Origin: Escherichia coli
GTDB taxonomy: Bacteria; Pseudomonadota; Gammaproteobacteria; Enterobacterales; Enterobacteriaceae
Reading direction: 5' to 3' (one strand)
NCBI RefSeq assembly: GCF_024700885.2
Contig: NZ_CP117016.1
Length of the DNA: 64,000 bases
Part shown: positions 9,024-26,555 of the stretch, piece after piece
Numbering within the stretch: the stretch's first letter is position 1
Layout of the letters: each line of letters begins with the position of its first letter
The notes under the pieces: model-generated
What the model was told of the DNA's origin: nothing
Databases searched by the model: none
The model's input: only the letters and a program-made list of their open reading frames with translations
Translations under genes and position numbers: made by a program

Positions 9024-11455
9024 TCCAGCCCCATCGCCCGCAAATGCTCGGCCACTTTCTCGCTCAACGCCTCAACGGAGGCTTCAAGCGCTAGCAACGG
9101 TTCAGCATAACGCTCTTCCAGCTCCTTTACGCGCGACGCCAGTTGCTGGGTAATACGCTCAATCTCCGCCTTGATCCCTGCCTGCAACGTTGCCAGCCAC
9201 TTATCCTGCACTACCAGCGTTTTAATCGCTGCTTCATCCAGCGTGGGATAATGTTTAAACACCGCCCGATCCAGCGCTTCTTGTGCGGCTTTCAGCGCTT
9301 TTTTCGCACTGGCTTCGGCCTTAATTAGCGCCAGGCAGCGGTTCAGCACTGCCAGCTCATCTGGGCCGGCAGTGGTTTTCTTTAACTGTGCTAGACGGGC
9401 ATTCACCAGCTTTTGCGTCACCTTATCTTTATCGTTCTTCGCCTCGGCCAGCAGATCCTCTTCACCTGCCTGCTCCTCGATGAATTCCACTAGCTGACGA
9501 CTGGCTTCTTCACTGCGCTCCTGCGCGCGGTTCAGCGCATCCAGCAGTTCCGGGAAACAGCGAATTTCCACCAGCGAACGGGGCAGCACATCGGCCTTGT
9601 AGCGCCGTTTGGTAAACTCGAAATCGTGCGTTTCTTTCCAGATGTTTTTGCCATCTTTGCCTTTCACCGGCTGAAGCTCGCGGATTTGCGCGGCGGCTTG
9701 CCAGCCATCCTGCATAATCGCATACACATCGTCTTGCATGACATCAGTCCAGTAATCCATCAGGATCTGGTACACGCTGTATTTGTTCAGCAACTCACTG
9801 TTGGCGTACTGCGCCAATAGCATTTCGCTGATATCGTGGATTAGCGCTTTGGGTTTATCACCTTTGCGAATCTCTTCCAGACTTGCCTCTTTCACCCACG
9901 CTTTAAACGGTAGCAGGCTGCGGGTGGCAAAATCCTTAAACTCCTGATGCGCCAGAATGGTCGGTTTCACCTGTTGCGCGTTCACCTGCGCCCGACAGTA
10001 ACCGGGACGGTCGTCAGCAAACAGCACGTTGCGCAGGGCAGGGAATACCCGCCAGTAATCTTGCAAAGCATCCACATCGCGTGCCGGAATACCGCCCTGT
10101 AAGTGCGCGGTCAGATCGTGTAAATCTTCCGGCTCGCCGCTCTCGATATAGCGAGGAATATTCAGGTTGTAATCATTTCCGGCGATCTCGCTGGAGGGCA
10201 CCATCCGGCTGTAGCCAGGTACCGTTCGCTGATGGTTGAACACGTCCACAATGCGGTGAATATCTCGGCTACGCAGGCGGTTCTTGTTGCCATCTTTGAT
10301 AAAGCCCCGGCTGGCGTCGATCATAAAAATGCCTTTGCGGCTGTGGGCGTGCTCTTTATCAATCACAATGATGCACGCCGGGATGCCGGTGCCGTAAAAC
10401 AGGTTGGCTGGCAAACCAATAACGCCTTTGATATAGCCCTGCTTGATTAGATTTTCACGGATATTCGCTTCGGCGTTACCGCGAAACAGTACGCCGTGGG
10501 GCAGGATCACCGCGCCTTTGCCGGTACTTTTCAGGCTTTTAATGATATGCAACAAAAAAGCATAATCGCCGTTTTTTTCCGGCGGAATACCCCAGCCGAA
10601 GCGTTCAAACGGATCTTTTTTCGGCGTCAGCCCGTTGGTCCAGTTTTTATTGGAAAAAGGCGGGTTCGCCACGGCAAAATCGAAGGCTTTCAGTTTGCCG
10701 TTCGCCTCTTTCCACTGCGGATCGCTCAGCGTATTGCCCTGCCAGATTTTCGCGGTGGCATTGTTATGCAGAATCATGTTCATCCGCGCCAGCGCACTGG
10801 TAGCGTTATCCATCTCCTGGCCGAAAATCGACAGTCCGCGCCGGGCTTCATCATTCACTTTCAACAGCAGCGAACCAGAGCCACAGGTTGGGTCATAAAC
10901 CGTTGCATCTTGCGGAGTATCGGGAGTAATACCAATCACCTTCGCCAGAATACGTGACACCTCCGCTGGAGTGTAAAACTGCCCTTTACTCTTACCGGAT
11001 TCGGTTGCGAAGTGACGCATCAGATATTCATAGGCATCGCCCAGCAGATCGTCGCCTTCGGCCCGGTTGCTGGAGAGATTTAACCCTTCAAAGATACCGA
11101 CAAGCTTGCTCAGGCGGTCAATCATTTCCTTGCCTTTGCCGAGCTTATCTTCGTCGTTAAAGTCGGCTTCGTCGATGACGCCCTTCAGGCCGTTCTCTTC
11201 CGCCAGCTTGTGGATGATTTTGTTGATTTTGTCGCCGATCTCTTTGTCATTTTTCAGCGCAACCATATCGTCAAAGCTGGCTCCTTTGGGTATCACGATC
11301 ATCCCGTAAGGATCGCCTTTATACTTATCGGAAACGTACTTCATAAACAGCAGGGTCAGTACATAGTCTTTGTACTGGCTGGCGTCCATCCCGCCACGCA
11401 GTTCGTCGCAGCTTGCCCACAGGGAAGAATAGAGTTCGGTTTTTTTGATAGCCAT
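9017..11455 (-). CDS. hsdM: Type I restriction-modification methyltransferase subunit (HsdM), long form with ~300-aa C-terminal coiled-coil extension
   Basis: 812 aa; HsdM N-terminal domain (MAIKKTELYSSLWASCDELRG...), AdoMet motif I DPTCGSGSLL and N6-adenine motif IV NPPF; C-terminal third is Ala/Glu/Lys/Leu-rich and predicted helical. Confidence 0.85.
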   Translation of the reverse strand: MAIKKTELYSSLWASCDELRGGMDASQYKDYVLTLLFMKYVSDKYKGDPYGMIVIPKGASFDDMVALKNDKEIGDKINKIIHKLAEENGLKGVIDEADFNDEDKLGKGKEMIDRLSKLVGIFEGLNLSSNRAEGDDLLGDAYEYLMRHFATESGKSKGQFYTPAEVSRILAKVIGITPDTPQDATVYDPTCGSGSLLLKVNDEARRGLSIFGQEMDNATSALARMNMILHNNATAKIWQGNTLSDPQWKEANGKLKAFDFAVANPPFSNKNWTNGLTPKKDPFERFGWGIPPEKNGDYAFLLHIIKSLKSTGKGAVILPHGVLFRGNAEANIRENLIKQGYIKGVIGLPANLFYGTGIPACIIVIDKEHAHSRKGIFMIDASRGFIKDGNKNRLRSRDIHRIVDVFNHQRTVPGYSRMVPSSEIAGNDYNLNIPRYIESGEPEDLHDLTAHLQGGIPARDVDALQDYWRVFPALRNVLFADDRPGYCRAQVNAQQVKPTILAHQEFKDFATRSLLPFKAWVKEASLEEIRKGDKPKALIHDISEMLLAQYANSELLNKYSVYQILMDYWTDVMQDDVYAIMQDGWQAAAQIRELQPVKGKDGKNIWKETHDFEFTKRRYKADVLPRSLVEIRCFPELLDALNRAQERSEEASRQLVEFIEEQAGEEDLLAEAKNDKDKVTQKLVNARLAQLKKTTAGPDELAVLNRCLALIKAEASAKKALKAAQEALDRAVFKHYPTLDEAAIKTLVVQDKWLATLQAGIKAEIERITQQLASRVKELEERYAEPLLALEASVEALSEKVAEHLRAMGLEW

Positions 11456-12270: not shown

Positions 12271-12732
12271 TAAGAGGCGTCAAAGGTAAGGGGCGTAGCG
12301 TTATTAGTTTGGGCTATACACTTGCGCTACAACTCTTCAAATAGCTATATATCAACAATATTTAGCCATAAACCGTCTACTTCCGTCTCAATTATACTCA
12401 AATTAAGGCATGCGGCATCTTTGTGACACATTTGTTTTTTTGATACAGGTTAGAGTTGACCTGCTCTCCGTTGATTAACTCACATTGTTGTTAACCACGT
12501 CTACTTTTAGCACGACACTGATGCGTTAACTGAGCGAATGGTCTGCTTTGAGCGAGGAACGGACATTACTAACAGCATTCTGTGTGAATCACCAGGGAGC
12601 AGGTCAGCGCCACTACTCTATATAATCGCTAACGATGACAAGTATAATTATATAAGTCTTTGCCCTTAGCTTTTGGATAAAATTGTTGAAGTTTCACGAA
12701 AATAATGATAAACAAAAACAGTAGCAATAATT

Positions 12733-13677
12733 ATGGATTTAATTATGGAATGGAGATTTTTAGGTTCTCTATCAGAGGCCAGGAAATCTGGCTGTAGCGG
12801 AGTTTATCTTATTGTCCATAAAGGACTTTTCAGTCGTGTGGTTTACGTTGGGGTAAGTTGTAATGTAGGTAGAAGGATAACCGAACATTACGACGGTTAT
12901 CTTAGAGGAAATCGAACAATTTACGACGCTGGTCACGACGAAGACGTTTATCGCTTCATGTCAGCTTATAAAATTCATAACCACACAAAATACTATCAAG
13001 CCTTGGCGAATGATTATAAGATATGGGCATCTACCACAATGTATTCTGATTTGCCGAAAAACATGCTAGCAAAAAGCCAAACCTTTGATACTGATTGGCA
13101 GAGCATTGCATTAGAAAAATATATTCCTCAACTGGTAGTATGGGCCCTTCCAATGGCAAAGTACTGTTATTCAAATGCAAGCAGGATTGAAAGTGTAATC
13201 CAATCAAAGCTCATTAAATCTTTTGATTTGAGAGGTTTTTTTAATATAAAGCAATTAAGCATATTGGGTAAAATTGAATATCCCTATATGGAAAAGGTCA
13301 AAGTTTTCATTATTAACACACCTGATTTAGACCCGGCATCCCAGCTTATTTTTAGCAATCTATATAACAAAAAAACTGATAACAACTTCTGTAAAGAGTT
13401 CCGTTCACAATTTAAAAGCGAGATTTTTCAGAGGGAAAGTGAAACTCAGAGAAAGCGAACTATCAGGGAGCATAAGGTATCTCTTTATGAAAATTATGGC
13501 AAGCCTTGGACTTTAAAGGAAATGGAAAAACTTAGAGTCATGCTTGTCGATTTTGATTTGTCCCCGATAGAAATATCTGAGTATCTAGGAAGAGAGCCGC
13601 GCTCTATATCTAAAAAAATAAGCGAAAATGATAAAGTTACTAATTATAAATGGCGAGAGAGCGTCGGCTGGTTGTGA
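12733..13677 (+). CDS. Hypothetical protein with GIY-YIG-like nuclease N-terminus and HTH-like C-terminus, in an AT-rich segment
   Basis: 314 aa; N-terminus GVYLIVHKGLFSRVVYVGVSCNVGRRITEH resembles the GIY...YIG...R...H core of GIY-YIG nucleases such as I-TevI; C-terminal ...WTLKEMEKLRVMLVDFDLSPIEISEYLGREPRSISKKI resembles a helix-turn-helix; flanked by ~400 bp of AT-rich non-coding DNA. Confidence 0.55.
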   Translation: MDLIMEWRFLGSLSEARKSGCSGVYLIVHKGLFSRVVYVGVSCNVGRRITEHYDGYLRGNRTIYDAGHDEDVYRFMSAYKIHNHTKYYQALANDYKIWASTTMYSDLPKNMLAKSQTFDTDWQSIALEKYIPQLVVWALPMAKYCYSNASRIESVIQSKLIKSFDLRGFFNIKQLSILGKIEYPYMEKVKVFIINTPDLDPASQLIFSNLYNKKTDNNFCKEFRSQFKSEIFQRESETQRKRTIREHKVSLYENYGKPWTLKEMEKLRVMLVDFDLSPIEISEYLGREPRSISKKISENDKVTNYKWRESVGWL

Positions 13678-13892
13678 CGTTACGTTTTGATTGAAATAAC
13701 CCCCATTTTGCAAAGTCCGCTCTTGGCACAGAGCGGACTGTCAGATGAGGTTTAGTTCTGTACTAATGAGCCGATACAAATTAGCTGCATATACCTGCAT
13801 TCCAAATAATTTTAGGCAGATATTATCTCCGTGAGTCCCCCGCCACTTTTCCGGTGCGCGGGGTTTTGTCTTTTTTCACCGGGAATACATGT

Positions 13893-14765
13893 ATGAATCC
13901 GTCTGATGCCATTGAGGCAATTGAAAAACCGCTCTCCTCCCTGCCTTACTCACTTTCCCGTCACATCCAGGAACATCTGCGCAAACTCACCAGTCACGAA
14001 CCCGTGATTGGCATTATGGGTAAAAGCGGGGCCGGTAAATCCTCACTCTGTAATGCACTGTTTCAGGGGGAGGTCACCCCGGTCAGTGATGTTCACGCCG
14101 GCACCCGGGAAGTGCGGCGCTTCCGTCTGAGTGGCCACGGTCACAGCATGATTATCACTGACCTGCCCGGGGTGGGCGAGAGCCGGGACAGGGATGCAGA
14201 GTATGAAGCCCTGTACCGTGACATTCTGCCTGAACTTGACCTGGTACTGTGGCTGATTAAAGCCGATGACCGTGCCCTGTCTGTGGATGAGTATTTCTGG
14301 CGACACATACTGCACCGGGGACATCAGCAGGTGCTGTTTGTGGTGACGCAGGCCGACAAAACGGAGCCCTGCCATGAATGGGATATGGCCGGCATTCAGC
14401 CTTCTCCCGCACAGGCACAGAACATTCGGGAGAAAACGGAGGCGGTATTCCGTCTGTTCCGGCCCGTACATCCGGTTGTTGCCGTATCGGCCCGCACCGG
14501 CTGGGAACTGGATACGCTGGTCAGTGCGCTAATGACAGCACTTCCCGACCATGCCGCCAGTCCCCTGATGACCCGCCTGCAGGACGAGCTGCGCACGGAA
14601 TCTGTCCGCGCTCAGGCCCGTGAACAGTTTACCGGTGCGGTGGACCGGATATTTGACACGGCGGAGAGCGTCTGTGTTGCCTCTGTTGCCCGTACGGTTC
14701 TGCGTGCCGTCCGTGACACGGTGGTCTCTGTTGCCCGCGCTGTATGGAACTGGATTTTCTTCTGA
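13893..14765 (+). CDS. yeeP: YeeP/YkfA/YfjP-family GTPase (CP4-type island gene)
   Basis: P-loop GIMGKSGAGKSS, G3 DLPG and TQADK G4 motifs; start placed at MNPSDAIEAIEK (13893) rather than the ORF-track start 13854. Confidence 0.85.
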   Translation: MNPSDAIEAIEKPLSSLPYSLSRHIQEHLRKLTSHEPVIGIMGKSGAGKSSLCNALFQGEVTPVSDVHAGTREVRRFRLSGHGHSMIITDLPGVGESRDRDAEYEALYRDILPELDLVLWLIKADDRALSVDEYFWRHILHRGHQQVLFVVTQADKTEPCHEWDMAGIQPSPAQAQNIREKTEAVFRLFRPVHPVVAVSARTGWELDTLVSALMTALPDHAASPLMTRLQDELRTESVRAQAREQFTGAVDRIFDTAESVCVASVARTVLRAVRDTVVSVARAVWNWIFF

Positions 14766-14879: not shown

Positions 14880-14925
14880 AAAACGATCGATAAAACAGGT
14901 ATCGATCGTTACCATCGATCGTTTA
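14880..14925 (+). promoter_or_regulatory. agn43 (flu) phase-variation switch: three closely spaced GATC Dam sites in the OxyR operator
   Basis: GATC at 14885-14888, 14904-14907 and 14917-14920, ~210 bp upstream of the Ag43 start, matching the known Dam/OxyR switch architecture. Confidence 0.75.
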
Positions 14926-15137
14926 TAGTGGTTAATGGTCTGCGAAAAGGCAGCTGAATCTCTTCATCATGCAGAACGGAATTGCACACAACGGACTGAT
15001 ACTTCTCTGGCGGATGAGAGAGGGGAAGCATTTATGTCCGGGAAAAACCACTTTATCTGACCATGCTGTTTTGTACCTGCCGGTATCCACATTTGTGGGT
15101 ACCGGCTTTTTTATTCACCCTCTGTAAGGAAAAGCTG

Positions 15138-17984
15138 ATGAAACGACATCTGAACACCAGCTACAGGCTGGTATGGAATCACATTACGGGCACCCTGGTG
15201 GTGGCTTCCGAACTGGCGCGCTCACGGGGAAAACGCACCGGTGTGGCGATTGCGCTGTCTCTTGCTGCTGTCACATCAGTTCCGGCACTGGCTGCTGACA
15301 CGGTTGTACAGGCGGGAGAAACCGTGAGCGGCGGAACACTGACAAATCATGACAACCAGATTGTTCTCGGTACGGCCAACGGAATGACCATCAGTACCGG
15401 TCTGGAGTATGGGCCGGATAACGAGGCCAATACCGGCGGGCAATGGATACAAAATGGCGGTATCGCCAACAACACTACTGTCACCGGTGGTGGTCTTCAG
15501 AGAGTGAATGCCGGAGGAAGCGTTTCAGACACGGTTATCAGTGCCGGAGGCGGACAGAGCCTTCAGGGGCAGGCAGTGAATACCACTCTGAACGGCGGTG
15601 AGCAGTGGGTACATGAAGGCGGGATTGCAACGGGTACCGTCATTAATGAGAAGGGCTGGCAGGCCGTCAAATCCGGCGCAATGGCAACCGACACGGTTGT
15701 GAATACCGGCGCGGAAGGGGGACCAGATGCAGAAAATGGTGATACCGGGCAGTTTGTTCGCGGAAATGCCGTACGTACCACCATCAATAAAAATGGTCGT
15801 CAGATTGTGGCTGTTGAAGGAACAGCAAATACCACTGTGGTTTATGCCGGCGGCGACCAGACGGTACACGGGCATGCGCTGGATACCACACTGAATGGCG
15901 GTTACCAGTATGTGCACAACGGAGGCACAGCCTCTGACACGGTTGTAAACAGTGACGGCTGGCAGATTGTCAAGGAAGGTGGTCTGGCGGATTTCACCAC
16001 CGTTAACCAGAAAGGCAAACTGCAGGTGAACGCCGGTGGTACAGCCACGAATGTCACCCTGAAACAGGGTGGAGCACTGGTCACCAGTACTGCGGCAACG
16101 GTTCTTGGCAGCAACCGTCTGGGCAATTTCACGGTGGAAAACGGTAAGGCTGACGGCGTTGTTCTGGAGTCCGGCGGTCGCCTGGATGTACTGGAAGGCC
16201 ATTCAGCGCAGAAAACACGGGTGGATGACGGCGGAACCCTGGCAGTGTCTGCCGGTGGTAAGGCAACAGATGTCACCATGACATCCGGTAGTGCCCTGAT
16301 TGCAGACAGTGGTGCCACTGTTGAGGGGACCAATGCCAGCGGTAAGTTCAGTATTGATGGCACATCCGGTCAGGCCAGCGGACTGCTGCTGGAAAATGGC
16401 GGCAGCTTTACGGTTAATGCCGGGGGACAGGCCAGCAACACCACTGTCGGACATCGTGGAACACTGATGCTGGCTGCCGGGGGAAGTCTGAGTGGCAGAA
16501 CACAGCTCAGTAAAGGCGCCAGCATGGTACTGAATGGTGATGTGGTCAGTACCGGCGATATTGTTAACGCAGGGGAGATTTACTTTGACAATCAGACAAC
16601 ACCGGATGCCGTACTGAGCCGTGCTGTTGCAAAAGGCGACTCCCCGGTAACGTTCCATAAACTGACAACCAGTAACCTCACCGGTCAGGGTGGCACCATC
16701 AATATGCGTGTTCGCCTTGATGGCAGCAATGCCTCTGACCAGCTGGTGATTAATGGTGGTCAGGCAACCGGCAAAACCTGGCTTGCGTTTACAAATGTCG
16801 GAAACAGCAACCTCGGGGTGGCAACCTCCGGACAGGGTATCCGGGTTGTGGATGCACAGAATGGCGCCACCACAGAAGAAGGTGCGTTTGCCCTGAGTCG
16901 CCCGCTTCAGGCCGGCGCCTTTAACTACACCCTGAACCGTGACAGCGATGAAGACTGGTACCTGCGCAGTGAAAATGCTTATCGTGCTGAAGTCCCCCTG
17001 TATACATCCATGCTGACACAGGCAATGGACTATGACCGGATTCTGGCAGGCTCCCGCAGCCATCAGACCGGTGTAAACGGTGAAAATAACAGCGTCCGTC
17101 TCAGCATTCAGGGCGGTCATCTCGGTCACGATAACAACGGCGGTATTGCCCGTGGAGCCACGCCGGAAAGCAGCGGCAGCTATGGCTTCGTCCGTCTGGA
17201 GGGTGACCTGCTCAGAACAGAGGTTGCCGGTATGTCTCTGACGACAGGGGTGTATGGTGCTGCAGGCCATTCTTCCGTTGATGTTAAGGATGATGACGGT
17301 TCCCGCGCCGGCACGGTCCGGGATGATGCCGGCAGCCTGGGCGGATACCTGAATCTGACACACACGTCCTCCGGCCTGTGGGCTGACATTGTGGCACAGG
17401 GAACCCGCCACAGCATGAAAGCGTCATCGGACAATAACGACTTCCGCGCCCGGGGCTGGGGCTGGCTGGGCTCACTGGAAACCGGTCTGCCCTTCAGTAT
17501 CACTGACAACCTGATGCTGGAGCCACAACTGCAGTACACCTGGCAGGGGCTCTCCCTGGATGACGGCCAGGATAACGCCGGTTATGTGAAGTTCGGGCAT
17601 GGCAGTACACAACATGTGCGTGCCGGCTTCCGTCTGGGCAGCCACAACGATATGACCTTTGGCGAAGGCACCTCATCCCGTGACACTCTGCGCGACAGTG
17701 CAAAACACCGTGTGAGTGAACTGCCGGTGAACTGGTGGGTACAGCCTTCTGTTATCCGCACTTTCAGCTCCCGGGGTGACATGAGCATGGGTACAGCCGC
17801 AGCCGGCAGTAACATGACGTTCTCACCCTCACAGAATGGCACATCACTGGACCTGCAGGCCGGACTGGAAGCCCGTGTCCGGGAAAATATCACCCTGGGC
17901 GTTCAGGCCGGTTATGCCCACAGCATCAACGGCAGCAGCGCTGAAGGTTATAGCAGTCAGGCCACGCTGAATGTGACCTTCTGA
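15138..17984 (+). CDS. flu: Antigen 43 self-associating autotransporter
   Basis: Signal peptide MKRHLNTSYRLVWNHITGTLVVASELARSRGKRTGVAIALSLAAVTSVPALA, repetitive passenger (…GGTA.NTT.N.GG.Q.V…) and C-terminal beta-barrel ending ...ATLNVTF. Confidence 0.9.
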   Translation: MKRHLNTSYRLVWNHITGTLVVASELARSRGKRTGVAIALSLAAVTSVPALAADTVVQAGETVSGGTLTNHDNQIVLGTANGMTISTGLEYGPDNEANTGGQWIQNGGIANNTTVTGGGLQRVNAGGSVSDTVISAGGGQSLQGQAVNTTLNGGEQWVHEGGIATGTVINEKGWQAVKSGAMATDTVVNTGAEGGPDAENGDTGQFVRGNAVRTTINKNGRQIVAVEGTANTTVVYAGGDQTVHGHALDTTLNGGYQYVHNGGTASDTVVNSDGWQIVKEGGLADFTTVNQKGKLQVNAGGTATNVTLKQGGALVTSTAATVLGSNRLGNFTVENGKADGVVLESGGRLDVLEGHSAQKTRVDDGGTLAVSAGGKATDVTMTSGSALIADSGATVEGTNASGKFSIDGTSGQASGLLLENGGSFTVNAGGQASNTTVGHRGTLMLAAGGSLSGRTQLSKGASMVLNGDVVSTGDIVNAGEIYFDNQTTPDAVLSRAVAKGDSPVTFHKLTTSNLTGQGGTINMRVRLDGSNASDQLVINGGQATGKTWLAFTNVGNSNLGVATSGQGIRVVDAQNGATTEEGAFALSRPLQAGAFNYTLNRDSDEDWYLRSENAYRAEVPLYTSMLTQAMDYDRILAGSRSHQTGVNGENNSVRLSIQGGHLGHDNNGGIARGATPESSGSYGFVRLEGDLLRTEVAGMSLTTGVYGAAGHSSVDVKDDDGSRAGTVRDDAGSLGGYLNLTHTSSGLWADIVAQGTRHSMKASSDNNDFRARGWGWLGSLETGLPFSITDNLMLEPQLQYTWQGLSLDDGQDNAGYVKFGHGSTQHVRAGFRLGSHNDMTFGEGTSSRDTLRDSAKHRVSELPVNWWVQPSVIRTFSSRGDMSMGTAAAGSNMTFSPSQNGTSLDLQAGLEARVRENITLGVQAGYAHSINGSSAEGYSSQATLNVTF

Positions 17985-21152: not shown

Positions 21153-21483
21153 TCCCTGAAGTCAGTTTCATGCTTCAGCCTCTGCCACAACGTATGGCAG
21201 AGGCTATTTATCAGGAGAAACCAGATATGCCGGGTTACACACAGAGTATGTCCTGGCTGAAGGATCTTTCTCATACGGGCAGACGGTGGCTGTCACAACA
21301 GCTTACCTTAATGTGCTTATTGAAGATGACCAGGTGCGCACTTCCGGCTGGTTATCCGCAACGCGGAAGGTCAGCGACGCTGGCGCTGCCGGAATACTGA
21401 ACCCTGTGCCGGAAAGCAGCTTAATGCGTGGCTCGCCAGTGAAGGGCTTCTCAGACAATAAACGTCATTGATTTCGTCCATCA

Positions 21484-21515
21484 GGCCGCGTCTTCTCCGG
21501 GAGACGCGGCTTTTT
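21484..21515 (+). terminator. Rho-independent terminator-like hairpin
   Basis: GCCGCGTCT ... AGACGCGGC stem followed by TTTTTT (21510-21515). Confidence 0.45.
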
Positions 21516-21561: not shown

Positions 21562-22383
21562 ATGCGATTAGCCAGTCGTTTTGGTTATGCTGCAAACCAG
21601 ATACGCCGTGACCGTCCACTGACACATGAAGAGCTGATGCACCATGTGCCGGGGATTTTCGGGGAAGATAAACACACGTCCCGAAGCCAGAACTATACGT
21701 ACATCCCCACCATCACCGTGCTGGAAAGTCTGCAGCGGGAAGGCTTCCAGCCATTCTTCGCCTGCCAGACCCGTGTGCGCGACCCGGGCCGTCGGGGATA
21801 CACAAAACACATGCTGCGTCTGCGGCGGGCCGGAGAGATAAACGGAGAACATGTCCCTGAAATTATTCTGCTCAACTCTCATGACGGTACCTCCAGCTAC
21901 CAGATGCTGCCGGGTTACTTCAGGTTCGTCTGCCAGAACGGGTGCGTCTGTGGTCAGTCTCTGGGGGAAGTGCGTGTTCCGCACCGGGGAAATGTAGTGG
22001 AGAAAGTTATCGAAGGGGCTTACGAGGTGGTGGGGGTTTTTGACCGGATAGAGGAGAAGCGTGATGCCATGCAGTCGCTGGTCCTGCCGCCACCGGCACG
22101 CCAGGCGCTGGCACAGGCGGCACTGACTTACCGTTATGGTGACGAACATCAGCCCGTCACCACCGCCGACATTCTGACGCCACGACGCCGGGAGGATTAC
22201 GGAAAGGACCTGTGGAGTGCTTATCAGACCATCCAGGAGAATATGCTGAAAGGGGGGATTTCCGGTCGCAGTGCCAGAGGAAAACGTATCCACACCCGTG
22301 CCATTCACAGCATCGACACCGACATTAAGCTCAACCGCGCATTGTGGGTGATGGCTGAAACGCTGCTGGAGAGTATGCGCTGA
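21562..22383 (+). CDS. DUF932-family protein (YfjQ/YafZ-like)
   Basis: 273 aa; position and sequence character match the DUF932 genes of CP4-type islands. Confidence 0.7.
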   Translation: MRLASRFGYAANQIRRDRPLTHEELMHHVPGIFGEDKHTSRSQNYTYIPTITVLESLQREGFQPFFACQTRVRDPGRRGYTKHMLRLRRAGEINGEHVPEIILLNSHDGTSSYQMLPGYFRFVCQNGCVCGQSLGEVRVPHRGNVVEKVIEGAYEVVGVFDRIEEKRDAMQSLVLPPPARQALAQAALTYRYGDEHQPVTTADILTPRRREDYGKDLWSAYQTIQENMLKGGISGRSARGKRIHTRAIHSIDTDIKLNRALWVMAETLLESMR

Positions 22384-22474
22384 TGCCGTTTCCCTGAAAG
22401 CGCAGTTCTGACTCACGTCTGTCCCTTCCCCCGGGATTTCTTCCATTCATTTACTTTTTATAAGGAATAATCTC

Positions 22475-22960
22475 ATGACAACCGTCTTGCATAATTCCAC
22501 CACTCCTTCTGTTTCCGTAACCGCTGCATCAGGGAATGACCAGCCTCAGCTGGTTGCCACCATAGTCCCTGATGAACAGCGCATCAGCTTCTGGCCGCAG
22601 CACTTTGGCCTCATTCCACAGTGGGTGGCCCTGGAGCCCCGTGTCTTCGGCTGGATGGACCGTCTGTGTGAAGACTACTGCGGTGGTATCTGGAATCTGT
22701 ACACCCTGAACAACGGCGGGGCATTTATGGCACCCGAACCGGATGACGATGATGACGAAACATGGGTACTGTTCAATGCCATGAACGGTAACCGCGCTGA
22801 AATGAGCCCGGAAGCCGCCGGCATTGCTGCCTGTCTGATGACGTACAGCCATCATGCCTGTCGTACGGAGTGTTATGCCATGACGGTCCATTATTACCGG
22901 TTGCGGGATTACGCCCTGCAGCATCCGGAATGCAGCGCCATTATGCGCATCATCGACTGA
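22475..22960 (+). CDS. Anti-restriction protein (ArdB/KlcA family, YfjX/YafX-like)
   Basis: 161 aa; acidic DDDDDE stretch and ...FGWMDRLCEDYCGGIWNLYTLNNGGAFMAP... typical of this family; position upstream of the radC-like gene. Confidence 0.75.
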   Translation: MTTVLHNSTTPSVSVTAASGNDQPQLVATIVPDEQRISFWPQHFGLIPQWVALEPRVFGWMDRLCEDYCGGIWNLYTLNNGGAFMAPEPDDDDDETWVLFNAMNGNRAEMSPEAAGIAACLMTYSHHACRTECYAMTVHYYRLRDYALQHPECSAIMRIID

Positions 22961-23452
22961 ATGGAGAGAAGCACAATGCAACAGCTTTCCTTTCTGCCCG
23001 GAGAGATGACGCCCGGCGAGCGCAGTCTCATTCTGCGGGCCCTGAAAACTCTGGACCGCCATCTTCATGAACCCGGCGTGGCCTTCACCTCCACCCGTGC
23101 GGCACGGGAATGGCTGATTCTGAACATGGCGGGACTGGAGCGTGAAGAATTCCGGGTGCTGTATCTGAATAACCAGAATCAACTGATTGCCGGTGAAACC
23201 CTCTTCACCGGCACCATCAACCGCACGGAAGTCCATCCCCGGGAAGTGATTAAACGCGCCCTGTACCACAATGCCGCTGCCGTGGTGCTGGCGCACAATC
23301 ACCCGTCCGGTGAAGTCACACCCAGCAAGGCAGACCGCCTTATCACGGAACGTCTGGTACAGGCACTGGGCCTGGTGGATATCCGGGTGCCGGACCATCT
23401 GATAGTCGGTGGCAACCAGGTTTTCTCCTTTGCCGAACATGGTCTGCTTTAA
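22961..23452 (+). CDS. yeeS: RadC-like JAB-domain protein (YeeS/YfjY/YkfG family)
   Basis: JAMM motif HNHPSGEVTPSKAD; alternative start at 22976 (MQQLSFLPGE). Confidence 0.85.
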   Translation: MERSTMQQLSFLPGEMTPGERSLILRALKTLDRHLHEPGVAFTSTRAAREWLILNMAGLEREEFRVLYLNNQNQLIAGETLFTGTINRTEVHPREVIKRALYHNAAAVVLAHNHPSGEVTPSKADRLITERLVQALGLVDIRVPDHLIVGGNQVFSFAEHGLL

Positions 23453-23514: not shown

Positions 23515-23736
23515 ATGAGAATCATCACCCGTGGTGAAGCCATGCGTATTCACCAACAGCATCCTGCATCCCGTCTTTTTCCGTTCTGTACCGGTAAGTA
23601 TCGCTGGCACGGCAGTGCTGAAGCGTATACTGGTCGTGAAGTGCAGGATATTCCCGGCGTTCTTGCCGTGTTTGCAGAACGCCGTAAGGACAGTTTTGGC
23701 CCGTATGTCCGGCTGATGAGTGTCACCCTGAACTGA
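23515..23736 (+). CDS. yeeT: YeeT-family small protein (DUF987)
   Basis: 73 aa; position between radC-like gene and cbeA. Confidence 0.7.
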   Translation: MRIITRGEAMRIHQQHPASRLFPFCTGKYRWHGSAEAYTGREVQDIPGVLAVFAERRKDSFGPYVRLMSVTLN

Positions 23737-23898
23737 TGTTCCGTCACCCGGGAAACGAGTACGACCAGATGACCTCAGACGCCGCTGTGGATGAGGCCAT
23801 TCTCATCAATGCATACATCTTCACCGAAACCGGTCAGCGCGCCGGCTGACCTGTCATCGTTAAACCATTCTTAACCACTTTTCAGAGAGGATTTTATC

Positions 23899-24273
23899 GT
23901 GTCAGACAAACTCTCCGGGATAACTCATCCCGATGACAATCACGACCGCCCCTGGTGGGGGCTTCCCTGCACAGTGAGGCCCTGTTTTGGCGCTCGTCTG
24001 GTGCAAGAGGGTAACCGCCTGCATTACCTTGCCGACCGCGCCGGTATCAGAGGCCGCTTCAGCGACGCAGATGCATACCATCTGGACCAGGCCTTTCCGC
24101 TGCTGATGAAACAACTGGAACTCATGCTCACCAGCGGTGAACTGAATCCCCGATATCAGCATACCGTCACGCTGTATGCAAAAGGGCTGACCTGCGAAGC
24201 CGACACCCTCGGCTCCTGTGGTTACGTTTATCTGGCTGTTTATCCGACACCAGCACCCGCAACCACCTCATAA
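23899..24273 (+). CDS. cbeA: CbeA (YeeU) type IV antitoxin
   Basis: 124 aa, ...[34 protein letters not shown]...; immediately upstream of cbtA. Confidence 0.85.
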
Positions 24274-24319
24274 CCCCGAAGCTCTCACCTTTAGCACTAC
24301 CAGTTACAGAGAACTTAAG

Positions 24320-24694
24320 ATGAAAACATTATCCGACACACATGTACGGGAGGTATCTCGCTGCCCGTCTCCCGTCACCATCTGGCAGACACTGCTCATC
24401 CGACTGCTGGACCAGCATTATGGCCTCACACTGAATGACACACCGTTTGCCGATGAACGTGTGATTGAGCAGCATATTGAGGCAGGCATTTCACTGTGTG
24501 ATGCAGTTAATTTTCTCGTGGAAAAATACGCGCTGGTGCGTACCGACCAGCCGGGATTCAGCACCTGTCCCCGCTCTCAGTTAATAAACAGTATTGATAT
24601 CCTCCGGGCTCGCCGGGCGACCGGCCTGATGACCCGCGACAATTACAGAACGGTAAATAACATTACCCTGGGTAAGTATCCGGAGGCGAAATGA
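24320..24694 (+). CDS. cbtA: CbtA (YeeV) type IV toxin (cytoskeleton-targeting)
   Basis: 124 aa [26 protein letters not shown]...; ATG at 24320 preferred over the ORF-track start 24218. Confidence 0.85.
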
Positions 24695-25182
24695 TGAAAC
24701 TGGCCCTGACACTGGAAGCCGACAGCGTTAACGTACAGGCACTGAACATGGGGCGCATTGTCGTTGACGTCGATGGTATTGAGCTCGCTGAACTGATTAA
24801 CATGGTCTGCGATAACGGCTACTCCCTTCGTGTTGTTGATGAATCTGACCAGACCTCAGCAGAATGCACGCCACCATTTGCTACCCTTACCGGCATACGC
24901 TGCAGTACCGCACATATCACGGAAACGGACAACGCCTGGTTGTACTCGCTGTCACACCAGACCAGTGACTTCGGTGAATCAGAATGGATTCATTTTACAG
25001 GTAGCGGATATCTGTTACGTACCGATGCGTGGTCATACCCGGTTCTGCGGCTTAAACGCCTGGGGCTGTCAAAAACGTTCCGTCGTCTGGTCGTCACACT
25101 CATCCGGCGTTATGGCGTCAGTCTCATTCATCTGGATGCCAGCGCTGAATGCCTGCCGGGTTTACCCACTTTCGACTGGTAA
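24691..25182 (+). CDS. yeeW: YeeW-family protein
   Basis: 163 aa, start overlaps the cbtA stop by 4 nt. Confidence 0.65.
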
Positions 25183-25193
25183 CCAGGAACAAC

Positions 25194-25391
25194 ATGAAAT
25201 CATTAACCACGGAAACAGCGCTGGATATTCTGATTGCGTGGCTGCAGGACAATATCGACTGCGGATCGGGAATTATCTTTGACAACGATGAGGATAAAAC
25301 GGATTCAGCAGCACTGTTGCCCTGTATCGAACAGGCCCGGGAGGATGTCCGTACCCTGCGTCATCTGCAGCTTCTGCACCAGAACCGGTGA
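25194..25391 (+). CDS. Hypothetical small protein (65 aa)
   Basis: MKSLTTETALDILIAWLQDN...; start placed at internal Met of ORF-track ORF 25149-25391. Confidence 0.45.
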   Translation: MKSLTTETALDILIAWLQDNIDCGSGIIFDNDEDKTDSAALLPCIEQAREDVRTLRHLQLLHQNR

Positions 25392-25475
25392 AGCTCACTC
25401 ACCAGACTTCATTCCTCTGACGCCAGCCTGCACAGGGCTGGCGTTTTCATTTATCTGCAAAAAGGAATATCGATT

Positions 25476-26318
25476 ATGTCAGATATCACAATCTCCCGTC
25501 CGGAAGTGGTCAACGGGCATACGGACGTTATCTGCTCAACCAGCATTCGCCACATTCTGGCTGTACGAAAGAGTACACTGTTGCAAATCGACACACTTAT
25601 CCGACAACTGGCTGAAATCTCGGTGCTGACGGAAAGCATCGGAGGTAAAACTGCCCCGGACTGGGCCATGAAACAGGATTTTCGCTGCGGCTGCTGGCTG
25701 ATGGAGAAACCCGAAACAGCAATGAAAGCCATTACCCGGAATCTTGATCGCGAAATCTGGCGTGACCTGATGCAACGTTCCGGGATGCTGTCATTAATGG
25801 ATACGCAGGCCCGTGATACATGGTACCGGTCACTGGAGTACGATAATTTTCCGGAAATCAGCGAAGCGAACATTCTGAGCACATTTGAACAACTGCACCA
25901 GAATAAGGATGAGGTGTTTGAGCGAGGGGTGATCAACGTCTTCAGAGGGCTGAACTGGAATTACAAAACCAATTGCCCCTGTAAATTTGGCAGTAAAATT
26001 ATCGTCAACAATCTGGTGAGATGGGACCGGTGGGGATTTCATCTTATCACCGGACAACAGGCTGACCGACTCGCCGATCTGGAAAGAATGTTGCACCTGT
26101 TCAGCGGTAAACCAATCCCCGACAACCGGGGAAACATCACCCTTCGTCTGGATGATCACATTCAGTCTGTTCAGGGTAAAGAGAGCTATGAAGATGAGAT
26201 GTTCAGCATCAGATACTTTAAGAAGGGCTCCGCGCATATCACGTTCAGAAAACCAGAACTGGTTGACAGACTGAATGATATTATCGCAAAACACTATCCT
26301 GATATGCTGGCAGTATAG
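25476..26318 (+). CDS. Hypothetical protein (280 aa), last island gene before the tRNA
   Basis: Long ORF with protein-like composition; no motif recognised. Confidence 0.6.
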   Translation: MSDITISRPEVVNGHTDVICSTSIRHILAVRKSTLLQIDTLIRQLAEISVLTESIGGKTAPDWAMKQDFRCGCWLMEKPETAMKAITRNLDREIWRDLMQRSGMLSLMDTQARDTWYRSLEYDNFPEISEANILSTFEQLHQNKDEVFERGVINVFRGLNWNYKTNCPCKFGSKIIVNNLVRWDRWGFHLITGQQADRLADLERMLHLFSGKPIPDNRGNITLRLDDHIQSVQGKESYEDEMFSIRYFKKGSAHITFRKPELVDRLNDIIAKHYPDMLAV

Positions 26319-26467: not shown

Positions 26468-26555
26468 TGGCGGTGAGGGGGGGATTCGAACCCCCGATAC
26501 GTTGCCGTATACACACTTTCCAGGCGTGCTCCTTCAGCCACTCGGACACCTCACC
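26468..26555 (-). tRNA. serX: tRNA-Ser (anticodon GGA), serX-like
   Basis: Reverse complement reads GGTGAGGTGTCCGAGTGGCTGAAGGAGCACGCCTGGAAAGTGTG...GGGGGTTCGAATCCCCCCCTCACCGCCA: long variable arm, T-loop GGTTCGAATCC, CCA end, GGA anticodon. Confidence 0.95.

Follow-up and report, generated by a model that had tools for sequence, protein, structure and literature searches.

Do four adjacent, co-oriented genes on an Escherichia coli genomic island amount to a four-gene type IV toxin-antitoxin (TA) module, or is a two-gene TA pair embedded here among linked neighbours? The question is raised by positions 23515-25182 of a 64,000-nucleotide stretch of E. coli DNA (contig NZ_CP117016.1 of assembly GCF_024700885.2; the whole stretch is hereafter referred to as the window), which a preliminary description had presented as a complete yeeT-cbeA-cbtA-yeeW module. 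Our analysis supports, with good confidence, the reading that the cbeA-like and cbtA-like genes of this locus form a type IV TA pair of the CbeA/CbtA (YeeU/YeeV) family, carried by an E. coli genomic island integrated at serX. This reading draws on full-length Pfam matches, some 88% identity to K-12 proteins whose mechanism of action is established, matches of the antitoxin to the YeeU structures 2INW and 2H28, the retention of residue F65 in the toxin, and conserved synteny. The TA pair itself consists of cbeA and cbtA only; yeeT and the DUF5983 gene found at the 'yeeW' position are conserved linked neighbours.

Four intact genes, two of which form the toxin-antitoxin pair

The calling of open reading frames (ORFs) on the window returned four co-oriented ORFs on the + strand, free of internal stops and frameshifts, the outer coordinates of which are exact: the DUF987/YeeT ORF begins with an ATG at position 23515, and the DUF5983 stop codon ends at position 25182 [Table 1]. 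The four encoded proteins span their Pfam models end to end with E values of 1e-22 to 1e-61, the toxin scoring 203.9 bits against PF06755 for a cut-off of 25, and these matches are far beyond chance; no curated NCBIfam model matched any of the four. Protein lengths conform to family norms, K-12 YeeT, CbeA and CbtA measuring 73, 122 and 124 amino acids (aa), respectively, and full-length DUF5983 proteins among the matches listed typically 162-163 aa. The identical sequence is found in E. coli MLI114 (NZ_CP117013.1), where the Prokaryotic Genome Annotation Pipeline (PGAP) records four intact coding sequences with the same boundaries, naming the antitoxin 'type IV toxin-antitoxin system YeeU family antitoxin' and the toxin 'TA system toxin CbtA family protein'. 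Uninterrupted reading frames, exact coordinates, complete Pfam coverage and the MLI114 annotation together bear out the earlier claim that all four genes are intact. Antisense and overlapping ORFs in the same interval were deemed mechanical and set aside; all of them are shorter than 90 aa save one upstream-extended form of cbtA (24218-24694), whose GTG start is not used by PGAP and would make the toxin gene overlap cbeA.

That the TA pair comprises two genes follows from experiments on the K-12 systems, since toxicity and rescue were reproduced with the toxin and the antitoxin alone (PMC5371832, PMC5624674), and since the YkfI/YafW and YpjF/YfjZ pairs are functional (PMC5371832) without a downstream DUF5983 gene and yeeW of K-12 is itself a remnant. 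What stands of the 'four-gene type IV TA module' is thus a genuine CbeA/CbtA-family pair (antitoxin 88.5% and toxin 87.9% identical to their K-12 counterparts); the extension of the term to four genes does not. The K-12 gene names mask genuine differences, in that the toxin differs from that of K-12 in a patch spanning residues 5-27, R15 included, and that 'yeeW' is here a full-length DUF5983 gene.

The pair belongs to the CbtA/CbeA class and carries a divergent patch

K-12 harbors three paralogous pairs against which the window pair can be placed. The antitoxin is 88.5% identical to CbeA and 60-63% to YafW and YfjZ, and the toxin 87.9% identical to CbtA and 58-62% to YkfI and YpjF. Because identity to CbtA and CbeA approximates 88%, versus only 58-63% to the other paralogues, the two genes are assigned by sequence to the CbtA/CbeA class of alleles and not to the other paralogue classes. 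The antitoxin further produced full-length sequence matches to the YeeU structures 2INW (E 5e-78) and 2H28 (E 4.5e-74) and, also over the full length, to 2EA9 and 2JN7, and is expected to adopt the YeeU/YfjZ fold. It differs by few substitutions from 2INW, the Shigella flexneri YeeU, and from 2H28, the E. coli YeeU, and its tail (...PTPAPATT) is nearer to that of 2INW than to that of K-12 CbeA. The same search of PDB sequences yielded no YeeU-family structure with a toxin or cytoskeletal partner and none of the exact window allele, and returned no match to CbtA, DUF5983 or DUF987.

The toxin differs from K-12 CbtA at 15 positions, 13 of which fall within residues 5-27, the other two being A82T and T84P; F65 is kept. 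Residue 15, which follows Arg14, is a cysteine in the window toxin and an arginine in K-12 CbtA. Comparison with K-12 CP4-44 DNA reveals a mosaic in which the divergent patch comprises the last cbeA codons, the intergenic spacer and cbtA codons 5-27 (approximately 24260-24400), the remainder of cbtA being about 98% identical to K-12 and the yeeS-yeeT stretch near-identical. We note that the patch is sharply divergent amid an alignment that is otherwise 93-98% identical, and that the antitoxin tail and the toxin N-terminus, with its R15 to C change, were swapped together. We interpret the patch as a recombination patch. With no R15 and a different N-terminal patch, the window toxin is, on comparison of the two sequences, not the strict K-12 CbtA allele (b2005). 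R15 is nonetheless not a family-defining residue, as YkfI and YpjF have C15.

Predicted mode of action

The K-12 toxins CbtA, YkfI and YpjF bind both FtsZ, at its H6/H7 loop, and MreB, at the flat inter-protofilament face; these interactions are direct and separable, and cells producing the toxins become lemon-shaped (PMC5624674). The F65S substitution abolishes FtsZ binding, and F65 is needed in all three toxins (PMC5624674). K-12 CbeA, as cited in a second report, neutralises its toxin through FtsZ and MreB polymers without binding the toxin itself (PMC5371832). The CbeA/CbtA operon is not autoregulated, and the three K-12 antitoxins cross-protect (PMC5371832). The mechanism quoted in the preliminary description, namely a toxin active on FtsZ and MreB and an antitoxin that does not bind the toxin, therefore agrees with the literature on the K-12 proteins (PMC5624674, PMC5371832), and the open-access papers searched contained no evidence overturning the absence of direct toxin-antitoxin binding.

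By analogy with the K-12 proteins, the window toxin would bind FtsZ at its H6/H7 loop, using a surface to which F65 belongs, and would also bind the flat face of MreB used in protofilament pairing; the combined action would block division and elongation and give rise to swollen, 'lemon' cells. The antitoxin would counter the toxin by binding and bundling FtsZ and MreB polymers, with no binding to the toxin, and neither protein would be expected to autoregulate the operon. Because F65 is kept, the FtsZ arm of this activity is very likely to be retained in the window toxin.

Gene spacing and transcription signals

The antitoxin gene lies directly upstream of the toxin gene on the same strand, the two being separated by 46 bp in the window versus 88 bp in K-12. 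The yeeT-cbeA spacer exceeds its 73-bp counterpart in K-12 CP4-44 by 89 bp; it presumably holds the cbeA ribosome-binding site, GAGAGGA, which precedes the GTG start of cbeA, and possibly a promoter. A consensus scan detected no sigma-70 promoter in this spacer, the sole promoter-like site on the + strand being located inside yeeT; the spacer had no Rfam match either, and its RNA fold was like that of shuffled sequences (z = -0.57). The 89 bp absent from the K-12 spacer contain a 26-codon ATG-initiated ORF (MTSDAAVDEAILINAYIFTETGQRAG) at 23769-23849 on the + strand, unannotated, putative and read by eye.

Closely preceded by GGAGG, an ATGA sequence forms a 4-nt overlap between the cbtA stop and the start of the DUF5983 gene, and the same 4-nt overlap between the toxin and DUF5983 genes occurs in K-12 and on a Klebsiella plasmid. 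Only two terminator-like hairpins, both of them strong, were found on the + strand between 21000 and 26700, and they bracket exactly the DUF932 to DUF957 genes [Table 1]. The first of them is likely to represent the upstream boundary, and the second the 3' end, of a transcription unit, an assignment that is suggestive only because the hairpins are pattern matches whose total count is not above that of shuffled sequences.

DUF5983 and YeeT, the conserved neighbors

The window DUF5983 protein contains both the N-terminal PF25638 and the C-terminal PF19419 domains, whereas K-12 YeeW is a 64-aa remnant consisting of the N-terminal part only, 61% identical to the window protein over the part they have in common. 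Across E. coli genomes, cbtA-type DNA was found at 12,742 places (4,893 genomes) and DUF5983 DNA at 12,523 (4,879 genomes). The DUF5983 gene is often truncated: when 80% or more of the query must be covered, a copy is found in 3,754 genomes, versus 4,852 for cbtA. The family is narrow, a 50%-cluster search of 1.84 billion representatives having yielded 221 of them at E <= 1e-3, and the best 120 relatives listed by a protein homologue search are at least 86% identical to the window protein with a single exception (71%, partial coverage). Two residues of the C-terminal domain, His75 and Asp80, are near-invariant, and this domain is also found in stand-alone proteins of about 100 aa. The predicted structures of the DUF5983 C-terminal domain and of YeeT are confident and produced no informative fold match in the PDB.

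The contexts of the DUF5983 C-terminal domain were compared for six stand-alone relatives and one 189-aa relative with a different N-terminal part (L008), an eighth being present only on a 1.5-kb contig. Neighbors of these seven genes include DUF932, Antirestrict, DUF905, PsiA, ArdC, LPD29, N6_Mtase and DUF4942. SLT-TraM-TraY-TraA or NikA-relaxase genes follow closely after five of the seven, and L011, a sixth, is located two genes before a relaxase gene. A 4-nt overlap with an unrelated upstream gene (DUF3085, DUF1281 or an unannotated ORF) is seen in two of the seven families (loci L009-L013). Judged by their gene content, the contexts of the stand-alone C-terminal domain have a layout resembling that of the leading regions of conjugative plasmids or integrative and conjugative elements.

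As to YeeT, the DUF987 gene is immediately upstream of the antitoxin gene in all seven loci examined, which include those of K-12 and of Klebsiella, Salmonella and Enterobacter plasmids.

A larger conserved block at the serX end of the island

Gene order places the four genes within a more extensive conserved block of about nine genes on the same strand, because the antirestriction and RadC/JAB genes are as constant upstream as DUF987 (7/7). The syntenic unit reads (DUF905), DUF932, antirestriction, RadC, DUF987, YeeU and CbtA, followed in the long-toxin class by DUF5983-DUF957, and then by DUF4942; all genes from DUF932 to DUF4942 are on the + strand of the window [Table 1]. CP4-44, CP4-6 and CP4-57, as well as plasmids of Klebsiella, Salmonella and Enterobacter, preserve the order antirestriction, RadC, DUF987, YeeU, CbtA, the toxins of the plasmid loci being only 57-65% identical to that of the window. 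The four genes sit at the serX-proximal end of a genomic island for which serX is the attachment site.

An E. coli genome carries several copies of the block, which is also present on enterobacterial plasmids. The window is chromosomal; a 24.8-kb stretch of it is 100% identical to MLI114 and nearly so to many other strains, and many complete E. coli genomes contain the four-gene locus at 100% identity. A 2-kb segment of the locus is at least 99% identical in 581 records, and its homologous places number 14,634 in 4,977 of 5,426 complete genomes (median, three per genome; about five in the best-matching genome), making the cassette one of the commonest accessory cassettes of E. coli. A CbtA homologue is found on 66 of 72,556 plasmids and in one of 50,697 phage records, the latter a 3.2-kb fragment, and we reject on the strength of this phage count the description of the locus as a prophage gene.

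Table 1. Features of the window discussed in the text, in order of position
Feature	Position	Strand	Evidence and remarks
darG	5950-7029 as ORF (5950-7017 with PGAP start)	-	PADLOC DarG E 1.5e-127; PGAP darG
darT	7014-7670	-	PADLOC DarT E 1.9e-74; PGAP darT
Terminator-like hairpin	21483-21512	+	13 pairs, just upstream of DUF932 gene; consensus scan
DUF932 gene (YfjQ/YafZ-like), first of block	21562-22383	+	PF06067 E 3.4e-52; PGAP
Antirestriction protein gene	22475-22960	+	PF03230 E 2.5e-37; PGAP
RadC-like JAB gene (yeeS-like)	22976-23452 (ORF opens 22961; PGAP start 22976)	+	PF04002 E 8.4e-45; PGAP
yeeT-like gene, DUF987	23515-23736	+	73 aa; PF06174 positions 1-65/65, E 7.8e-40
yeeT-cbeA spacer	23737-23898		162 bp
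cbeA/yeeU-family antitoxin gene	23899-24273	+	GTG start, 124 aa; PF06154 positions 1-100/101, E 9.8e-55
cbtA/yeeV-family toxin gene	24320-24694	+	124 aa; PF06755 positions 1-112/112, E 5.7e-61
DUF5983 gene, 'yeeW' position	24691-25182	+	163 aa; PF25638 E 2e-31 and PF19419 E 2.1e-22
65-aa ORF, PGAP 'DUF957 domain-containing protein'	25194-25391	+	Next block member after DUF5983
Terminator-like hairpin	25419-25445	+	11 pairs then T-run, just after DUF957 ORF; consensus scan
DUF4942 gene, last island gene before tRNA	25476-26318	+	PF13708 E 8.7e-69; weak PHROG link to DNA methyltransferases
tRNA-Ser(GGA), serX	26468-26555	-	ARAGORN, Rfam tRNA; PGAP context ghrA-ycdX-ycdY-csg

Several features of the block deserve mention in their own right. 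The DUF905 gene just upstream of it (21227-21461, + strand) carries a PGAP-flagged frameshift in MLI114; no other member of the cassette is decayed. Two long ORFs (21568-22446, 292 aa, and 22529-23440, 303 aa, both on the - strand) lie antisense to the DUF932, antirestriction and RadC genes; they are not in PGAP and are probably mechanical in this region of 55% GC. The 65-aa ORF annotated as DUF957 had no match in the current copies of Pfam, NCBIfam and PHROGs. A 2026 preprint reportedly discusses the AntiFam entry ANF00264, a neighbor of DUF5983 in cbtA loci, as a possible genuine protein; the 65-aa ORF probably corresponds to this entry.

Weighing the evidence and alternative readings

Three points weigh against the assignment of the pair to a CbtA-like mode of action or bear on its limits. 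Firstly, 13 of the 15 toxin changes, Cys15 among them, are concentrated in residues 5-27. In K-12 CbtA, the R15C change is enough to abolish MreB binding and to make cells filamentous instead of lemon-shaped (PMC5624674), and because Cys15 lies within the patch the MreB arm is less certain than the FtsZ arm. It is still probable, though not assured, since YkfI and YpjF carry C15 naturally and nevertheless inhibit elongation, their behavior being left unchanged by C15R (PMC5624674), and since the remaining stretches that modelling places at the MreB interface (82-96 and 100-122; PMC8828653) are almost unchanged in the window toxin. MreB binding is therefore the one mechanistic point at which the window allele could differ from textbook CbtA. 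Secondly, the 4-nt overlap of the cbtA and DUF5983 genes and their near 1:1 co-occurrence in E. coli keep a functional tie between DUF5983 and the toxin conceivable. Thirdly, co-transcription of the block is proposed solely from the terminator scan described above, with its total count no higher than in shuffled sequence.

Among the alternatives, the one that survives best is that the DUF932-DUF4942 block belongs to an integrative element mobilised by conjugation and is its leading-region-type establishment or anti-defence cassette. CbeA would then serve mainly as an early-expressed or even translocated protective factor and CbtA would mainly stabilise the island, and the pair would not be a stand-alone stress module. 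Anti-restriction genes, TA systems and orphan antitoxins, encoded on one strand, are overrepresented in leading regions (PMC11541004), and the block of the window is likewise a one-strand cluster of anti-restriction, TA and uncharacterised genes. Antirestriction, RadC/JAB, DUF932 and DUF905 genes are also found in leading-region-like contexts on plasmids, stand-alone DUF5983 C-terminal domain genes directly precede SLT-TraM-TraY-TraA or NikA-relaxase genes, and the near absence of CbtA homologues from phage records weakens the 'prophage gene' label. CbeA, YagB and YfjZ, moreover, are translocated via the type IV secretion system of F, although at low frequencies of about 1e-7 to 1e-5 (PMC11288057). 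CbtA and YeeU, on the other hand, are not named in the Nature study of leading regions (PMC11541004), CbtA homologues are on very few of the plasmids surveyed, and no oriT, relaxase or single-stranded DNA promoter was identified in the window, no search for oriT, relaxase or Frpo having been made. We regard this role as a tentative possibility; it concerns the biological purpose of the block and is compatible with the same molecular mechanism.

It is also conceivable, if unlikely, that the pair, though intact, is in practice cargo, either silent or redundant, and produces no phenotype in its native context. The best-matching genome has several homologous places, and antitoxins cross-neutralise paralogous toxins (PMC5371832); the type IV antitoxins of K-12 can be deleted without lethality, which has been attributed to low toxin expression (PMC5371832), and the consensus scan detected no promoter directly preceding cbeA. 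Yet the ORFs of the block are intact except for DUF905, and the conservation of the 2-kb segment at 99% identity or more in hundreds of records is unlike that of decaying genes; triple deletions of the K-12 toxins and antitoxins, in addition, alter oxidative-stress resistance and early biofilm formation (PMC5371832).

A proposal that we consider quite unlikely combines DUF5983 and the block: DUF5983 would be a functional partner of the pair, as a promiscuous modulator or neutraliser or as an establishment factor, and the block the relic of a conjugative leading-region cassette as opposed to a prophage TA locus. Besides its coupling to cbtA and near 1:1 co-occurrence with it, this proposal draws on the C-terminal domain being encoded, in plasmid and ICE leading regions, by a stand-alone gene in last position. 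Weakest of all is the reading as a tripartite or four-part unit, in which DUF5983, through translational coupling, and/or YeeT would modulate CbtA, for instance as a second antitoxin, a chaperone or a toxin-release sensor: the overlap and GGAGG motif shared with K-12 and the Klebsiella plasmid, the nearly equal numbers of places and genomes with cbtA-type and DUF5983 DNA, the constant position of DUF987 and the scoring of CbtA_toxin/DUF5983 as a recurrent pair in a survey of E. coli TA systems (PMC10790755) speak in its favor, but it is very doubtful in view of the sufficiency of toxin and antitoxin alone in K-12, the truncation of DUF5983 in K-12 and its absence after YkfI- and YpjF-type toxins, its shortfall relative to cbtA among near-complete copies, the occurrence of its C-terminal domain without CbtA and in coupling with unrelated upstream genes, and a predicted fold that offers no functional clue. 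The type IV TA pair formed by CbeA- and CbtA-like proteins remains the reading that we favor.

A second toxin system and other features of the island

The preliminary description had also stated that the island carries two mechanistically unrelated toxin systems, and the presence of DarT/DarG was confirmed by both PADLOC and PGAP. The darT and darG genes are adjacent and, as ORFs, overlap at 7014-7029. DarT ADP-ribosylates DNA, and DarG removes the modification. The two genes lie within a type I restriction-modification operon on the - strand that consists of hsdR (2836-5931), darG, darT, hsdS (7683-9023) and hsdM (9017-11455), with PADLOC matches to REase_I, Specificity_I and MTase_I. An M48 metallopeptidase gene (2120-2836, - strand) abuts hsdR, so that 2120-11455 constitutes a composite defence island. 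No PADLOC defence-system model matches CbeA, CbtA or DUF5983, and there is therefore no support for calling the CbeA/CbtA locus a known anti-phage system.

Two further observations concern the region between these systems. An Rfam match to the IS102/IsrC small RNA (14883-15119, + strand; 72.3 bits, E 1.1e-10) is situated directly upstream of an Ag43/Cah autotransporter gene (15063-17984), and a 'GTPase family protein' of the YeeP/YkfA type (13854-14765, + strand) shows weak PADLOC matches to LeoBC (E 1.2e-8) and LeoA (E 7.8e-5).

Significance

As a discovery the locus matters little, for its family has been characterised by experiment and its exact sequence is annotated in hundreds of genomes. 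Its value lies firstly in annotation hygiene: the TA pair is made of two genes, 'yeeW' of K-12 is a DUF5983 fragment, and the conserved unit numbers about nine genes. Secondly, a common natural allele with Cys15 on a CbtA backbone offers a ready means of testing whether the MreB arm is set by the N-terminal segment. Thirdly, the tight coupling of cbtA and DUF5983 and the leading-region contexts of DUF5983 relatives bear on the purpose of a recurrent island cassette of E. coli.

Comparison with known systems

The CbeA/CbtA family has been studied since 2003, and the locus is already known in the sense that it has an identical public annotation and belongs to an experimentally characterised family. 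DarTG resembles CbeA/CbtA in being a two-gene toxin/antitoxin locus on the same island; it differs from it in that the proteins are unrelated, that its genes are on the opposite strand some 16 kb away, inside the type I restriction-modification operon, and that PADLOC includes DarTG, but not CbeA/CbtA, as a defence system.

Closest to the window is yeeS-yeeT-cbeA-cbtA-yeeW of K-12 CP4-44, which has the same order and strand (YeeS 99%, YeeT 97%, CbeA 88.5% and CbtA 87.9% identical) and shares with it F65, the 4-nt cbtA/yeeW overlap and an isrC-flu arrangement like that of IsrC and Ag43/Cah. CP4-44 occupies another site and is devoid of DUF957 and DUF4942, whereas the block of the window continues into DUF957-DUF4942 and abuts serX. 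The YkfI/YafW (CP4-6) and YpjF/YfjZ (CP4-57) pairs belong to the same Pfam families, have RadC-DUF987 upstream and, like the window toxin, combine Cys15 with F65; unlike it, they are only 58-63% identical to the window pair, with shorter toxins (109-113 aa), antitoxin-toxin spacers of 20 bp and no DUF5983 or DUF957 gene downstream. The Klebsiella pneumoniae plasmid pRWS291.s3 (NZ_CP110517.1) presents the same order, DUF905, DUF932, antirestriction, RadC, DUF987, YeeU, CbtA, DUF5983, DUF957, its toxin and DUF5983 protein being 65% and 67% identical to those of the window; it differs in being plasmid-borne and in having extra small hypothetical genes interspersed. Set against these systems, the window pair displays at the sequence level all the characteristics by which the CbeA/CbtA family is recognised.

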